NCBI GenBank assembly: GCA_020632515.1
Contig: JACKFK010000005.1
Coordinates: 157,327-221,326, forward strand
Direction: 5' to 3'
Source: Candidatus Omnitrophota bacterium
Lineage (GTDB): Bacteria > Omnitrophota > Gorgyraeia > Zapsychrales > Zapsychraceae
Length of the DNA stretch: 64,000 nucleotides
The position numbers and the translations under genes were made by a program. This document shows, piece after piece, positions 33,264 through 62,550 of this stretch; position 1 is the stretch's first letter; each line of letters starts with the position of its first letter. The notes beneath the pieces were generated by a model. The model saw nothing but the letters and a program-made list of their open reading frames with translations. It made no database searches and was not told the DNA's origin.

Positions 33264-33342
33264 AAAATCCCTAGATGTTTTGTTGGAAAATATTCTAGAT
33301 GAGTTTCCGGTAAATTGCAAATGGTTAAGTGGGGTTGGGGTT

Positions 33343-33450
33343 ATTGTGTTTGTTGTGTTTATTGTGTTTATTGTGTTTATTGTGTTTTTGTGTTTATTGT
33401 GTTTATTGTGTTTTTGTGTTTATCGTGTTTATTGTGTTTGTTGTGTTGTT
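33343..33450. repeat. Tandem array of about 12 units, consensus ATTGTGTTT (9 bp, two 8-bp variants)
   Basis: Read directly: ATTGTGTTT GTTGTGTTT ATTGTGTTT x3 TTGTGTTT ATTGTGTTT x2 TTGTGTTT ATCGTGTTT ATTGTGTTT GTTGTGTT. Confidence 0.95.
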
Positions 33451-33461
33451 GAGTTTAATGC

Positions 33462-33533
33462 AATAATTCAATAACCCAATAACCCAATAACCCAATAACC
33501 CAATAACCCAATAACTCAATAACTCAATAACTC
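33462..33533. repeat. Tandem array of 9 units of 8 bp: AATAATTC, AATAACCC x5, AATAACTC x3
   Basis: Read directly. The reverse complement of the main unit (GGGTTATT) resembles the neighbouring array unit (GTGTTTATT). Confidence 0.95.
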
Positions 33534-33600
33534 AAACACCCCAAACAACCTTACAATCCTTTTTGACTCTGCGAAAGTTTGATGGCATAATGGCGGTGTT

Positions 33601-40504: not shown

Positions 40505-41032
40505 ATGAAAATATTAAAAACATTCATCATGGTTTTTCTTGCGGTAAGTATAACCGGGTGCGGCTATTCAACAAGGTCGTTGTTGCCCAATCACATAAAG
40601 ACTATATATGTAGAACCTTTTAAGAACAGTATTGATTTCGCATCCGAAGGGCGGCGGAATATTTATTTTCCTTTATTGGAAGTAAATTCGCGTAACGCTA
40701 TTATTGAACGGTATATTTTTGATGGAAATCTGCGTGTCTCCGAATCACAAAACGCGGATTTGGTTTTAAAAGGGGAATTGATCAATTATGATCGGACAGC
40801 TCTTCGCTATACCGACAATGATGATGTCCAAGAGTATCGCGTGTATATAACTGTAAAACTTGAGCTATGGGATGCGGTTAACCAGGAATATATGTGGACA
40901 GAAAGTTCTTTTACTGGAGAGGCGACATATTTTATAACCGGCGCCTTAGCCACAACAGAAGAATCTGCTGTTGCCGAAGCTATTACAGACTTAGCTCGGC
41001 GGGTTGTTGAACGGACAATTGAGAATTGGTAA
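40505..41032 (+). CDS. lptE: LptE-like LPS assembly lipoprotein
   Basis: 175 aa. Lipobox 'SITGC'. Size and position fit: it lies immediately upstream of holA, as in the E. coli leuS-lptE-holA arrangement, and leuS is 3.6 kb upstream. Confidence 0.5.
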   Translation: MKILKTFIMVFLAVSITGCGYSTRSLLPNHIKTIYVEPFKNSIDFASEGRRNIYFPLLEVNSRNAIIERYIFDGNLRVSESQNADLVLKGELINYDRTALRYTDNDDVQEYRVYITVKLELWDAVNQEYMWTESSFTGEATYFITGALATTEESAVAEAITDLARRVVERTIENW

Positions 41033-41095
41033 TTTAAGGTCACAAGATGCATATTGGGTTGCTCGATACAGTATGCGGTTTTGTGACCTTAAATT
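41031..41095. repeat. Perfect 15-bp inverted repeat with a GGTCACAA core (simple member of the GTCACAA element family, or a terminator)
   Basis: AATTTAAGGTCACAA (41031-41045), a 35-nt loop, then TTGTGACCTTAAATT (41081-41095), followed by ATTTTT. It overlaps the lptE-like stop codon. Confidence 0.85.
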
Positions 41096-41179
41096 ATTTT
41101 TAATGAAATCTAAACGAATGGTAAAAGGGCAGCTGAAAGAGTATTATAAAACTGATTATCTGTCCTTCTTGGAATTATT

Positions 41180-46306: not shown

Positions 46307-46340
46307 AAGGGGGTATGTTATAATACCCCCTTGTTTATTT
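46307..46340 (+). terminator. Rho-independent terminator
   Basis: AAGGGGGTAT (46307-46316) pairs with ATACCCCCTT (46323-46332), followed by GTTTATTT. Confidence 0.8.
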
Positions 46341-46548
46341 AGTGGTAAGTGATAAGTGATAAGTGATAAGTTAGAAACAAGTCACAAAGTGGCCAAGTCA
46401 CAAGGTCATCGATAATTAATATTGCAGTTCTGTGACTTGAGTTTCAAATCTGTGCTGTTGTGACATTGTGACTTTCCGATATCTGACGGGTGACAGTTGA
46501 AGGCTACGAATCGGATAACTGACACGACGACTTTGTGACAAGTTTTTT
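46341..46548. repeat. Composite intergenic element A: 7-mer array (GTGRTAA x5), phased 8-mers GTCACAAA..., and inverted TTGTGAC units
   Basis: GTGGTAA GTGATAA x3 GTTAGAA (46342-46376). GTCACAAA GTGGCCAA GTCACAAG GTCATCGA (46381-46412). TGTGACTT (46431), TTGTGACA TTGTGACT (46458-46473), and CTTTGTGAC (46531-46539) followed by TTTTTT. Confidence 0.9.
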
Positions 46549-46583: not shown

Positions 46584-47676
46584 ATGATCGACGAAATAAA
46601 AGATAAAATTACCAATATCGAAGATAAACTCCAGCATCTAAGGGGGTTTCTTTGACCTTTCCCAAAAAGAACAGACAATAGAATCTATTCAACAACAAAT
46701 GTCACAACAAGACTTTTGGGATGATTCCGCGAAATCAAATAAGATTATGCGGGAACTAAAATATCTTAAGTCATGTATTGAACCATTTCAAAATGGACTT
46801 GAAAAAGTTAAAGAATTAAAAGAGATGCTAGAGATTTCTCTCGATGATCAGGAAATGCTGGGGCAGATTCATCAGGAGTTGGAATCTTTGGAAAAGGACA
46901 TTAATGTCTTAGAGTTAAATAGTATTCTCGCGGGGCCATTTGATCGTAATAACGCTATTTTGAGCATTAATGCAGGCGCTGGAGGAACAGAGTCTTGCGA
47001 TTGGGCGAGTATGCTGCTTCGCATGTATACCCGCTGGGCTGATCATCATCATGCCGCTATCAAAACATTAGACATTTTACATGGAGATGAAGCTGGCATA
47101 AAAAATGTTACTTTATCCATAGAAGGTGATATGATTTATGGATATTTGAAAGCGGAAAAGGGTGTGCATCGATTGGTTCGTATTTCTCCGTTTGACGCGA
47201 ATAAACGACGACATACGTCATTTGCCTCGGTTGATGTTATTCCAGAGATTGAAGATGACATAGAAGTTCAAATTAATCCAGATGAATTGCGGGTGGATAT
47301 TTTTAGATCCTCAGGTCCAGGCGGGCAAAGCGTTAATACAACCGATTCGGCTGTACGGATTACGCATTTACCAACGGGAATTGTTGTGCAATGTCAAAAT
47401 GAACGGTCACAACTGCAGAATAAACAGGTGGCCATGAAAATTTTGAAAGCTCGGTTGTATGAAGTAAAGCGTAGAGAACAAGATGAAAAAATGTCAAAAG
47501 AGTACGGGGAAAAACAAAAGATTGAGTGGGGCAGTCAGATCCGCAGTTATGTTATGCATCCGTATTCTTTAGTAAAAGATCATCGTACGGATTTTGAAAC
47601 TGGGAATGTGGCTAAGGTGATGGACGGGGAAATTGATGATTTTATTGAGGCGTATTTAAAAACGAAAAAGGGATAA
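46584..47676 (+). CDS. prfB: Peptide chain release factor 2 with programmed +1 frameshift: join(46584..46652,46654..47676)
   Basis: The first frame reads MIDEIKDKITNIEDKLQHLRGFL and then meets an in-frame TGA. The +1 frame continues DLSQKEQ... into the 325-aa track ORF. 'SPF' and 'GGQ' motifs are present. Confidence 0.93.
46641..46656 (+). promoter_or_regulatory. RF2 autoregulatory +1 frameshift site (internal SD plus CTT TGA C)
   Basis: AGGGGGTTTCTTTGAC. As I recall it, the E. coli site is AGGGGGTATCTTTGAC. Confidence 0.9.
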
Positions 47677-54824: not shown

Positions 54825-55013
54825 ATGAGTGAACAGAAGAAAACAAAGAAAAATAAAAAAACGACAATGTTTCCACTCGGGATAGTTTTGCTTATTCTTG
54901 GAGTCAGTATGATTTTGGCTTGGTGGCCTGATGTTGTAAGTGTATTTCGCGGACTCCTTGGTATAGCTTTGGCGCTGGGCGGGTTATTGGTCTTGTATTC
55001 GTTAAATAAGTAA
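54825..55013 (+). CDS. Small two-TM membrane protein
   Basis: 62 aa. Lysine-rich N-terminus followed by two hydrophobic helices. The start codon is uncertain. Confidence 0.35.
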   Translation: MSEQKKTKKNKKTTMFPLGIVLLILGVSMILAWWPDVVSVFRGLLGIALALGGLLVLYSLNK

Positions 55014-55018
55014 TTATA

Positions 55019-55145
55019 GTGGTCAGTGATCAGTGTTAAGTGGTCAGTAAACAAGTTACAAGGTCACAAAGTTTCCAGATCATAAAATATTTGTAACTTT
55101 GTGACAAAAGCTTCAGATTCTTATTGCTGTGACATTGTGACTTCT
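55019..55145. repeat. Composite intergenic element B, collinear with element A
   Basis: GTGGTCA GTGATCA GTGTTAA GTGGTCA GTAAACA (55019-55053). AGTTACAA GGTCACAA AGTTTCCA (55054-55077). TTGTAACT TTGTGACA (55091-55106). CTGTGACA TTGTGACT (55127-55142). It shares the 16-mer TGTGACATTGTGACTT with element A. Confidence 0.9.
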
Positions 55146-55184
55146 TTATTGATTAGTACCCATCAGAGACGGGCGACTTAAAAT

Positions 55185-57651: not shown

Positions 57652-57732
57652 ATGGGGAAACGTAAAAGAAGAGGGAAGTTGAACTGGCGCTCTAAAAAAG
57701 CCAATCACGGTAAGAAACCTAACCGAGGGTAA
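57652..57732 (+). CDS. Possible 30S ribosomal protein Thx (26-codon basic ORF, absent from the ORF track)
   Basis: My translation: MGKRKRRGKLNWRSKKANHGKKPNRG. RBS AAGGAG lies 8 nt upstream. It resembles Thermus Thx ([26 protein letters not shown], from memory) in the 'MGK..RRGK..WR' pattern. Confidence 0.4.
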   Translation: MGKRKRRGKLNWRSKKANHGKKPNRG

Positions 57733-57849
57733 GTAGTTGTTAAAATTCTCTGGTTTGTTTTTTGAGTTTTAGATTTTCGACCATTGATCGCGTTTATTTA
57801 CCTGCAAGTTGGCAGGTAGAAAACGTTTGATTATTAACGATGCAGGGAG

Positions 57850-60767: not shown

Positions 60768-62311
60768 AGTTCTCTCCTAGAAAAATTCAATTCAAGAAAA
60801 CCGAATCTCCTAAAGAAAAAAAAAGCAAATCCCGCCGGTTTCAACGAAGAAATTCTTTTAAATTTGAAGTTACAGCCTTAATCACTTTAGTGGTGGGCAT
60901 AATTCTTATGGTGTTTAGCTGTGTTTTGTATTGGATTTTGTCACATACTTTGCATGTTGATATGGACAATGAATTAAAAATTAAAGCTGAAACAGTAAAT
61001 CAGGCTATCCGTGTTTATGTGGATGTTAGAGGAGAGAAGCCGGAATCATTAAAATACGCGATTGAAAAAGCTGTTGTTGAAGAAAATTTGCACAACACCC
61101 GCTGGTGGATGTTTGGTTTTCAACGCCGCTGGTCGGAGCAACTTGATGATTTGGATTTAGATGAAGTATATATTAATTTTGCTTCTTCAAAGAAGGCATC
61201 GCTTTTTAGGTCGAAAAATATGGATTCGGAATTAACAAACCAGTTTCTAACGCAGGTTGAAATTGATGTGAATAACAAATCGGTTTTTAAGAATTTAAAT
61301 TTCAACGACCAAAGAATACGTATTATTAACTATCCGGTTTCTTATGATGGCGAATCTTATTATTGTATTCAAATTGGGGCTTCACAAAGGCCAATTGTGG
61401 TTTTGCTGGAAAACTGGCTGAAATCTACCTTATACAGTATTCCAGCGGTGTTGATTTTGACATTTTTCGTCGGGCAGTTGTTCGCTTCCAGAATCTTGTC
61501 GCCTATTCAAAAAATCACGTCTACCGCGAAAACTATTGCCGATGGAGATTTAAGCATGCGGATGGAAGCGCAGGATTATTATGTTGAAATGAATTATCTT
61601 ATCGACGCCTTTAATGAAATGATAGAACGTTTAGAAAGATCTTTTCACCATATCGAAGAATTTAGTTCGCATGTCGCGCATGAACTCAAGACGCCTTTAA
61701 CCATTATTCGAGGAGAAACAGAATTAGCCTCGCTGGAAGGAAGAAATACTGAAGATTATAAAAGGGCCCTGGGGATTATTTTAGAGGAAACTGAAAATAT
61801 GCTTACGATAATTGAAGACTTGCTGTTTTTGTCTAAATTAGATTATCGGCCTGAATTCCCGCAGATGAAAAAAATGGACTTTGTTGAATTTTTTAGGGAA
61901 GTTTCCGAACAAAGCCGTATTTTGGTTAATGAAAAGAAAATTCAATTATTAATAGATATACCTAATGAAAAGATATTCGTCATAGGTGACAGCGTGCATT
62001 TAAGACGTTTATTTTTTAATTTAATTAATAATGCAATAAAATATACGCCTAGTCAGGGAAAAATTCAATTAAACTTAGTAAGAAAGAATAAAGAAGTCAT
62101 GGTTTCTGTTAAGGATAATGGGCGGGGGATAAATAAAGAAGATCTGGAAAATATTTTTGAACGATTTTATAGTTCTAACGATGAAGATTCCGGTGTGGGG
62201 CTGGGATTAAATATTGCCTCCACCATTGCCAAGGTGCATAAAGGACATATTGAAGTTGTTAGTCTGCCTAACGACGGGGCAACCTTCCAAGTATTCTTAC
62301 CAATTGTTTAA
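60764..62311 (+). CDS. Sensor histidine kinase (2 TM, HAMP, HisKA, HATPase_c)
   Basis: 515 aa. H-box 'SHVAHELKTPL', N-box 'LINNAIKYT', G1 'DNGRGI', G2 'GVGLGLNI'. It overlaps the response-regulator stop by 4 nt. Confidence 0.9.
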   Translation: MKFSPRKIQFKKTESPKEKKSKSRRFQRRNSFKFEVTALITLVVGIILMVFSCVLYWILSHTLHVDMDNELKIKAETVNQAIRVYVDVRGEKPESLKYAIEKAVVEENLHNTRWWMFGFQRRWSEQLDDLDLDEVYINFASSKKASLFRSKNMDSELTNQFLTQVEIDVNNKSVFKNLNFNDQRIRIINYPVSYDGESYYCIQIGASQRPIVVLLENWLKSTLYSIPAVLILTFFVGQLFASRILSPIQKITSTAKTIADGDLSMRMEAQDYYVEMNYLIDAFNEMIERLERSFHHIEEFSSHVAHELKTPLTIIRGETELASLEGRNTEDYKRALGIILEETENMLTIIEDLLFLSKLDYRPEFPQMKKMDFVEFFREVSEQSRILVNEKKIQLLIDIPNEKIFVIGDSVHLRRLFFNLINNAIKYTPSQGKIQLNLVRKNKEVMVSVKDNGRGINKEDLENIFERFYSSNDEDSGVGLGLNIASTIAKVHKGHIEVVSLPNDGATFQVFLPIV

Positions 62312-62313
62312 AA

Positions 62314-62437
62314 GTCACAAAGTCAAAAAGCCACAAAGTCGCAAAATCAGATATCCGGCCCAGAGCGATAACCGATTCAACTTCGTAAGTTGGACTAGGT
62401 TTACGGTGACCTTGTGATTTTGTGGCTTTGTGACGTT
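62314..62437. repeat. Composite intergenic element C: four forward 8-mers and four inverted 8-mers around a roughly 58-bp spacer
   Basis: GTCACAAA GTCAAAAA GCCACAAA GTCGCAAA (62314-62345), then CGGTGACC TTGTGATT TTGTGGCT TTGTGACG (62404-62435). It starts 3 nt after the kinase stop codon. Confidence 0.9.
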
Positions 62438-62550
62438 TAATTAAATAAATTAATTGTAATTTAATCTTCGTTTAATCTTCGTTTTGTTAAATTGCTCACA
62501 AGTAAATCGCTTAAAGAATACCAATCAATCAAATAAATAAGGAGGGTGGC

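Follow-up and report, generated by a model that had tools for sequence, protein, structure and literature searches.

The stretch of Omnitrophota DNA analysed here, 64,000 nt long and referred to below as the window, carries four copies of a repeat, elements A, B, C and D, whose recurring unit is the octamer GTCACAAR. All four are intergenic on the open reading frame (ORF) map, as the sequence-only reading of this DNA had held for three composite loci (A, B and C) and one simple locus (D), and no meaningful ORF lies inside any of them. The genes that neighbour them are all on the + strand, in DNA of about 38% GC with a GC skew of about +0.2. Elements B, C and D start 0-4 nt past the upstream stop codon and A starts just downstream of a hairpin and T-run, in keeping with the earlier claim that each element begins after a stop codon or terminator. 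The elements, their parts and their flanking genes (by Pfam) are listed here.

46307..46332, + strand: hairpin and T-run just upstream of A; the loop holds the conserved prfB extended -10 box
46340..46548, + strand: element A, composite, 209 nt, in the putative prfB 5' leader, homologous to B; upstream, PilT-like ATPase gene; downstream, release factor 2 (RF2) gene, prfB
46341..46371, + strand: heptamer array of A, (AGTGATA) x4.4, 95% matches by Tandem Repeats Finder (TRF)
46381..46412, + strand: forward octamers of A, GTCACAAA GTGGCCAA GTCACAAG GTCATCGA
46429..46474, + strand: inverted units of A, TCTGTGAC ... TGTGACAT TGTGACTT, with the 16-mer shared with B at 46459-46474
46485..46494, + strand: junction motif of A, GACGGGTGAC
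46520..46545, + strand: 3' arm of the outer inverted repeat of A; partner 46375-46400, 26-nt arms
55017..55177, + strand: element B, composite, 161 nt; upstream, small membrane ORF; downstream, Na/Ca exchanger gene
55018..55048, + strand: heptamer array of B, AGTGGTC-like, x4.4, 79% matches by TRF
55055..55105, + strand: inner hairpin of B, forward GTTACAAG GTCACAAA GTTTCCAG, loop, inverted TTTGTAAC TTTGTGAC
55128..55143, + strand: exact 16-mer TGTGACATTGTGACTT of B, 3' arm of a predicted long-range stem
55168..55177, + strand: GACGGGCGAC of B, the GACGGGYGAC motif
62308..62440, + strand: element C, 133 nt, with 33-nt arms at 62308-62340 and 62408-62440 and a 67-nt spacer; upstream, histidine kinase gene; downstream, response regulator gene
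41030..41096, + strand: element D, 67 nt, perfect 16-nt inverted repeat TAATTTAAGGTCACAA / TTGTGACCTTAAATTA at 41030-41045 and 41081-41096; upstream, LptE gene; downstream, DNA polymerase III delta gene (holA)
46381 (+), 46531 (-), 55063 (+), 55097 (-), 62314 (+), 62426 (-): copies of the 9-mer GTCACAAAG

Elements A, B, C and D are a real dispersed family of intergenic, hairpin-forming repeats built on GTCACAAR, and word counts and alignments both say so. The 9-mer GTCACAAAG or its complement (GTCACAAG/CTTTGTGAC) is present six times, compared with 0.36±0.54 in shuffled sequence, where 0 of 100 shuffles reach six; every copy lies within A, B or C, one per orientation per locus, just as in the earlier count, and the earlier estimate of less than one by chance holds. 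The 7-mer GTCACAA occurs 17 times in the window (5.0 expected), with 12 of the 17 inside the four loci and the remaining five matching the chance expectation of 5.0. Collinearity of A and B spans 46340-46476 and 55018-55145, where 99 of 139 aligned columns are identical (71%); the alignment scores 67 versus -78±13 for shuffles, about 11 standard deviations above. They share the exact 16-mer TGTGACATTGTGACTT (starting at 46459 and 55128) and the motif GACGGGYGAC (46485 and 55168; two matches versus 0.06 expected). The collinearity, heptamer array, 16-mer and junction motif that had been described from the letters alone were thus all recovered by alignment, TRF and motif counting. A profile model had been proposed at the same time; one built from A and B picks up C on either strand (E=5e-5 and 1e-3) and has no other match in the window, in the adjoining 12 kb or in the relatives described below. 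No further copies are present in the 10 kb of source genome upstream and the 2 kb downstream of the window, and a metagenome scan with an A/B-specific 19-mer, in a collection that does not include the source species, gave nine matches, all to unrelated sequence. The strict 8-bp phasing that had been claimed stands within each short array (46381/46397, 46459/46467, 62314-62345) and does not extend across whole elements.

The arms of the four elements differ in complexity. In A, the inverted units are predicted to pair with 46395-46409 in a stem common to A and B, and the outer 3' arm holds CTTTGTGAC at 46531-46539, followed by TTTTTT; elements in further Omnitrophota likewise have a 3' arm that begins with the motif ACGGGTGAC (L012 and L014; L-numbers label comparison loci from other genomes or assemblies, and P-numbers comparison proteins). 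Element B sits between the stop codon of a 62-aa membrane-protein ORF (55011-55013) and the ATG of the Na/Ca exchanger gene (55185). Element C begins at the histidine kinase stop codon, and its arms, of four octamer units each (TRF arrays at 62311-62349 and 62406-62434), form an imperfect inverted repeat that is 82% complementary. Element D has one unit per arm, with the lptE stop codon within the left arm and a T-run after the right arm. Just downstream of C, and upstream of the response regulator gene, is a direct repeat, TTTAATCTTCG x2.3, at 62460-62484, adjoined by a weak TGTTA-N6-TCACA match at 62485-62500. Two independent contigs from the Logan assemblies (L001 and L002) start in the middle of C, their position 1 corresponding to 62375 of the window, which suggests that the C hairpin breaks short-read assembly graphs.

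RNA folds predicted for B, C and D are more stable than those of shuffled sequences (z-scores of -3.2, -5.4 and -9.1, the last with a fold of -35.6 kcal/mol), whereas the fold of A as a whole is no better than shuffles (z=-1.4). The long-range stem predicted for both A and B, AAGTYACAA.GT with AC.ATTGTGACTT, is kept through a C>U change, a comparison of two sequences only. In all four elements the sense-strand RNA folds more stably than the antisense, with 22 G·U pairs versus 11. The suggestion that the TGTGAC cores are CRP/FNR-like half-sites found no support: the CRP-type palindrome TGTGA-N6-TCACA has two near-matches in 64 kb (1.35 expected), none of them within an element, and the cores are direct or nested repeats. 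Nor does the family correspond to an RNA or repeat described before, as far as our searches reached: Rfam gave no match over the 64 kb at gathering thresholds and only sub-threshold noise at E≤5, and literature searches with the repeat sequence, the complementary sequence or the peptide it encodes brought up nothing but eukaryotic matches that are unrelated.

The RF2 encoded in the window is 100% identical to a metagenome protein labelled peptide chain release factor 2 of 'Candidatus Omnitrophica bacterium', and the best coding matches of the window are to Omnitrophota-type loci; a Beggiatoaceae genome with TAACTGA-type repeats, which the heptamers and the 38% GC had brought to mind, is thereby rejected. 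The same species is represented by GCA_020430025.1 and by several Logan/ENA assemblies, in which the elements are essentially identical. Among its loci (L001-L003, L122-L124) the sole difference is one single-nucleotide change (46430 C>T in L123), with no variation in unit number. The picture changes between species. Three relatives (L125, L126 and L127), with RF2 78-81% identical and about 35 kb compared in total, keep the gene order LptE, holA, S20, MurJ, UvrC, PilT-like, then prfB, SecA, Lnt, LpxL, small ORF, and have no GTCACAAR elements in those 35 kb; the lptE-holA spacer, for example, is 28 nt in L126 versus 147 nt in the window. Insertion polymorphism, which the sequence-only reading had named as something to look for, is therefore seen between species, at orthologous spots, and not within the species. 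Since the relatives lack the elements and their orthologous spacers are short, A-D are best read as lineage-specific gains, made by this Omnitrophota species after it split from the relatives that share its gene order. A small ORF for a very basic peptide (MGKRKRRGKLNWRSKKANHGKKPNRG), at 57653-57733 in the spacer ahead of the H+-pyrophosphatase gene, is conserved in one of the relatives (L125:20857-20940) and was missed by the 80-aa ORF list.

Comparison with the relatives also bears on the position of A. An extended -10 box, T(A/G)TGTTATAAT, is conserved 37-43 nt upstream of the prfB start in L125-L127; its counterpart in the window, TATGTTATAAT (46314-46324), is 259 nt upstream of the prfB ATG (46584), and the extra 210 nt or so is element A. 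We infer from the conservation of this promoter that A lies within the prfB 5' leader. The segment that holds the box (46307-46332) scores as a bidirectional terminator and overlaps an 11/12 match to a sigma-70-like promoter (TTGAAA-16-TATAAT). The prfB gene itself (46584-47676) has a classic programmed +1 frameshift site at 46650-46656 (AGGGGG, short spacer, CTT TGA C) following a 22-codon ORF0, and both the site and the ORF0 length are found in L125, L126 and L127.

The octamer array is not confined to this species. We scanned one genome per species for 185,579 species with the pattern GTCACAARGTNNNNARGYCACAARGT, for which our own arithmetic gives a chance expectation of about one match (the pattern has 18 fixed and 4 two-fold positions, and 1.19e12 positions were scanned), and found at least 118 arrays of GTCACAAR, the sole octamer scanned. 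By record title, the matches listed comprise 43 from Omnitrophota, 40 from Bacteroidota, 16 from metagenome-assembled genomes (MAGs) named 'uncultured Planctomycetales/Planctomycetia' and 19 others; the MAGs with Planctomycetales/Planctomycetia names give the best coding matches to the window. Several MAGs hold many arrays among the matches listed, and most listed arrays are pure, with 3-17 units. A local segmental duplication, which had been put forward as an explanation that would undo the idea of a family, is ruled out by the unrelated flanks of the elements and by the thousands of kilobases of other genomes that carry the unit. Rather, the repeat class is widespread, and no description of it was found in our Rfam or literature searches.

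Arrays in other genomes resemble those of the window in layout. Inverted [T/G]GTGAC units within 200 nt lie downstream of the array in 40 cases and upstream in about five, such that the usual order is forward array, loop, inverted array; by analogy, this fixed forward-then-inverted arrangement is what terminal inverted repeats show. Omnitrophota arrays share details with the window elements, such as a 3' arm starting (T)TACG-GGTGAC, and 10 of the 20 that follow a long ORF begin no more than 5 nt past its stop codon. One Bacteroidota MAG, LacPavin_0419_WC70L_MAG_48_58, has at least seven copies of a family resembling MITEs (for miniature inverted-repeat transposable elements); its outer inverted repeats are GAGTCCACTCTGAAAAG / TTTTCGGAGCAGACTC, its 5' arm consists of 5-17 perfect GTCACAAA units whose number varies by copy, and its 3' arm is degenerate (L009, L010, L015, L034, L043, L057, L093, L104, L120). 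The 150 ORFs beside arrays match 185 Pfam families, all from ordinary metabolism; none is a transposase, a reverse transcriptase or a nuclease. Viral contigs gave a single (GTCACAAR)3 match, and phages are not evident as a vector of the arrays. The unit resembles what we take to be the 16S rRNA 3' region AAGTCGTAACAAGGTAACC (the complement of primer 1492R), an 8-nt near-repeat, a likeness that may be coincidence; the arrays likened to it are that of L015 (GTAACAAGGTAACAAG) and 3' arms of the form GGTGACCTTGTGACTT.

Across 413 kb of Omnitrophota-type loci, 70 arrays have period 8 and 40 have period 7, and periods 9-11 are nearly absent; the period-7 arrays have diverse units and often form hairpin pairs. 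Spacer hairpins whose arms are heptamer arrays of unrelated units occur at L127:1838-1909, L152:7276-7390 and L037:5869-5932, one example being an AGCTATC.../CTGAACG... hairpin between prfB and secA in L127. To judge from these sequences, array-armed hairpins seem to be a general habit of Omnitrophota. The window holds a second composite array, unrelated to A-D, at 33323-33560: GGGGTTGGGGTT, (TTATTGTGT) x12, a short spacer, (CAATAACC) x9 and ACACCCCAAACAACC, between a divergent thiS-thiG-thiH-like operon (- strand) and a small zinc-ribbon-like ORF (+ strand). Its fold z-score is only -2.0, and Rfam finds no thiamine pyrophosphate (TPP) riboswitch there.

Of 60 arrays in Omnitrophota-type loci, about 20 are found within long ORFs. 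All of these run in the sense orientation, since the complement has TGA in every frame, and most are 33 nt (four units plus one base), in-frame and encode VTKSQ(S/G)HKVTx; the peak at four units is partly imposed by the search pattern. Such cassettes fall within single Pfam domain matches to HemB, AroA, QueC, PheT, a heptosyltransferase (GT9), a class-I glutamine amidotransferase, IspD, TsaD, an aconitase-family protein and PyrD (in-frame cassette loci: L028, L113, L035, L036, L094, L032, L042, L049, L050, L077, L082, L079). At its array, PurD of L079 is 7-8 residues longer than PurD of L039 and L062. In a conserved large protein, one linker has a complete hairpin-type element in L040 (1605-1720) and L066 (6737-6800) and lacks it in L084 and L125; the L066 gene changes reading frame at the array, for which a one-unit assembly error, a pseudogene and recoding are candidate causes.

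QueC provides the closest view of an array inside a gene. We compared 120 homologues (P0121-P0240) that are 62-71% identical, many of them labelled Omnitrophota, and found an 11-residue segment at one loop in 76. In 50 of the 76, at least 2 of 3 residues repeat at offset +8, the pattern that an octamer array demands, whereas offsets 5-7 give 0-3. The DNA of the loop in four lineages consists of four-unit arrays of different octamers, GTCACAAA, CTTACGAA, CGCWATAA-like and CCGAAAAA (L035:5199-5230, L165:9382-9413, L166:8897-8936, L167:3549-3580). That the array stayed tandem while its unit changed suggests concerted evolution. A few homologues are eight residues shorter, as a three-unit contraction would give, and some (P0151, P0160, P0196) have a further insertion within the cassette.

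The explanation we favour, to which we give roughly an even chance, is that A-D are non-coding palindromic repeats of the kind represented by repetitive extragenic palindromes (REPs) with their bacterial interspersed mosaic elements (BIMEs), or by MITEs, and that they act as transcribed stem-loops in mRNA. The arms would be short tandem GTCACAAR arrays, joined in A and B by a heptamer array, and copies would have settled in the prfB leader and in short spacers that separate co-directional housekeeping genes. Elements in such positions would be transcribed within mRNAs and fold as long imperfect stem-loops. Their likely effect, as known for REP/BIME and many MITEs, would be to protect the 3' end of the upstream mRNA, to cause partial termination or to uncouple neighbouring genes, and some individual copies may have no effect at all. 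Slippage, intra-strand (quasi-palindrome) template switching or gene conversion probably keeps the arms repetitive and complementary.

Known repeat families offer partial parallels. The REPs and BIMEs of Enterobacteria and Pseudomonas are short imperfect extragenic palindromes past stop codons in operons; they occur as inverted pairs or mosaics and are transcribed, species-specific and non-coding. Elements A-D are likewise imperfect palindromic units, extragenic and in inverted pairs or mosaics, but a 7- or 8-nt unit in tandem makes up their arms, they have no GTAG-type head (A and B begin TAGTGGT, and C begins AAGTCACA), the searched neighbours include no RAYT/Y1 transposase domain, one unit is found across deeply diverged genomes and related arrays lie in-frame within genes. 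MITEs are non-coding, small (<500 bp) and have inverted repeats at their ends (PMC10969869). The likeness of the elements to REP/BIME or MITEs, noted from the start, extends to size (67-209 nt), inverted arms (16-33 nt), AT-rich intergenic sites and stable hairpins predicted in the transcript, and, for MITEs, to several diverged copies (four loci in about 76 kb) that are present or absent between species. Unlike MITEs, they have no parent insertion sequence with matching ends among the window genes or the 150 array-neighbour ORFs, and the unit number of the tandem arms varies (5-17, in the Bacteroidota MAG). Rickettsia palindromic elements also have related copies that are tolerated in-frame in housekeeping proteins, but are about 150 bp long (PMC10969869), whereas the coding insertions here are 33 nt and represent one arm. 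Heptamer repeats, including the short tandemly repeated repetitive (STRR) sequences of cyanobacteria, TAACTGA of Beggiatoaceae, Cyanobacteria and Bacteroidetes (PMC4679880) and GGGAATC of Xanthomonas (PMC4692102), are intergenic 7-nt arrays near gene ends or starts, and A and B open in the same way; they, too, have one unit in distant phyla without a known transfer mechanism and occasional in-ORF or inverted copies. The dominant unit here, however, is an octamer, usually paired with an inverted array as a hairpin, the units are unlike TAACTGA and STRR, and Omnitrophota are not among the described hosts.

Several observations weigh against the interpretation as REP- or MITE-like stem-loops. The source genome has only four loci in about 76 kb. 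The same octamer recurs across deeply diverged Omnitrophota, whereas a REP or MITE family is usually limited to one species or genus, and neither kind classically has tandem-array arms or in-frame 33-nt cassettes. No transposase, RAYT or reverse transcriptase is found among the annotated genes in and around the window or among the 150 array-neighbour ORFs. GTTTAA flanks C on both sides and TTAA surrounds D, but these sequences are palindromic or nearly so and can equally be read as parts of the arms; A and B show no flanking direct repeats, and there is no alignable empty site. At the RNA level, the gap between sense and antisense stability may merely reflect the strong GC skew, without selection, and a scan for the terminator consensus finds none in A-D, whereas ordinary terminators exist elsewhere in the window; D and the outer stem of A do have T-runs after them, but their stems are long and AT-rich. 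Given the lack of a proven target duplication, a parent transposase or RAYT, and a known head motif, we withhold membership in REP/BIME or MITEs proper.

The coding cassettes allow a broader, rather speculative proposal, one that we think has a minor chance of being correct: a process not described before in Omnitrophota, and perhaps in Bacteroidota and Planctomycetota, may write or convert 32-33-nt cassettes of lineage-specific octamers into many sites, including surface loops of essential enzymes, and keep them homogeneous for long periods, the window hairpins being among its products. In a more specific form, which we regard as unlikely, templated or conversion-based 'repeat-writing' would install and re-homogenise the octamer cassettes in intergenic and coding DNA alike, by ectopic gene conversion among dispersed arrays or by a reverse transcriptase that works from a short RNA template, and the window hairpins would be products of greater age that have decayed and gained complementary arms. 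The in-frame 33-nt cassettes in many enzymes would fit, as would the +8 identity of the QueC loop in 50 of 76 segments (control offsets, 0-3), the differing octamers at that one site, the unit common to several sites in one genome, and the enrichment of periods 7 and 8. Yet the ORFs next to arrays include no candidate enzyme or template, local slippage in 24-nt steps suffices to homogenise a coding array, and the four-unit peak, seen with a single scanned octamer, is partly forced by the pattern. Moreover, the window arrays are degenerate rather than freshly written, and 11-17 kb around three variant QueC genes contain no second array of the matching unit.

Alternatively, the arrays could be double-stranded DNA sites for a small sequence-specific protein, each subunit of which recognises one unit of 7 or 8 bp, in the manner of ribbon-helix-helix repressors on heptad arrays, with a regulatory or partition-like role for the flanking genes. 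Fixed-period tandem and inverted units in all elements are what such a protein would bind, conservation of the unit across distant genomes suggests a conserved reader, and A adjoins the prfB promoter; the heptad AGTGATA, which reads TATCACT on the other strand, also resembles WATCACW, presumably the heptad of the omega repressor. We consider this quite unlikely, since the same arrays lie within coding regions of unrelated enzymes and in post-stop spacers far from promoters, an 8-bp period puts successive sites on differing helix faces, the elements lack CRP-type palindromes, the 150 neighbour ORFs include no DNA-binding protein gene linked to the arrays, and relatives regulate the same genes without the elements.

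It is less probable again that one or more elements are a structured regulatory RNA gene or leader with a specific role, for instance a small RNA, or a riboregulator that controls prfB or the two-component operon, and not generic repeats. The stable predicted structures, the place of A in the presumed prfB leader and the excess of G·U pairs on the sense strand speak for such a role, but no Rfam family matches even at E≤5, the flanking genes are functionally unrelated, relatives have the same genes without elements, A folds no better than shuffles and the covariation comes from two sequences. The weakest of the rivals, because the word is in no excess outside the elements, is that the octamer is a 'self' DNA word (an uptake sequence or Chi-like site) under molecular drive whose inverted pairs double as terminators as in Neisseria: the Neisseria DNA uptake sequence (DUS) and Haemophilus uptake signal sequence (USS), which we take to be 9-12-nt words, also come in inverted pairs directly after genes and are tolerated in coding frames, and the window codes for ComEA, ComEC and a PilT-like ATPase, but singletons are not enriched, about one locus per 19 kb is far below the roughly one per kb of known uptake sequences, close relatives entirely lack the element, and DUS, USS and Chi are not tandem arrays, which together make this highly improbable.

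The stability of mRNA, the polarity of operons and the rearrangement of genomes are all shaped by small palindromic repeats, which are almost unstudied beyond Proteobacteria, Firmicutes and Cyanobacteria. The elements described here add a candidate phylum that is represented only by metagenomes, with arms made of a fixed 8-nt unit that recurs across distant lineages, is tolerated as 11-residue insertions in essential enzymes and shows signs of concerted evolution at one codon-level site. In practical terms, such repeats disrupt short-read assembly, can cause apparent frameshifts, as at L066, and could serve as markers for Omnitrophota strain typing. If a process that writes the repeats exists, it would amount to genome-wide sequence drive of a new kind, distinct from transposition, and a dedicated mechanism of this sort would give bacteria a new way to edit their own genes.

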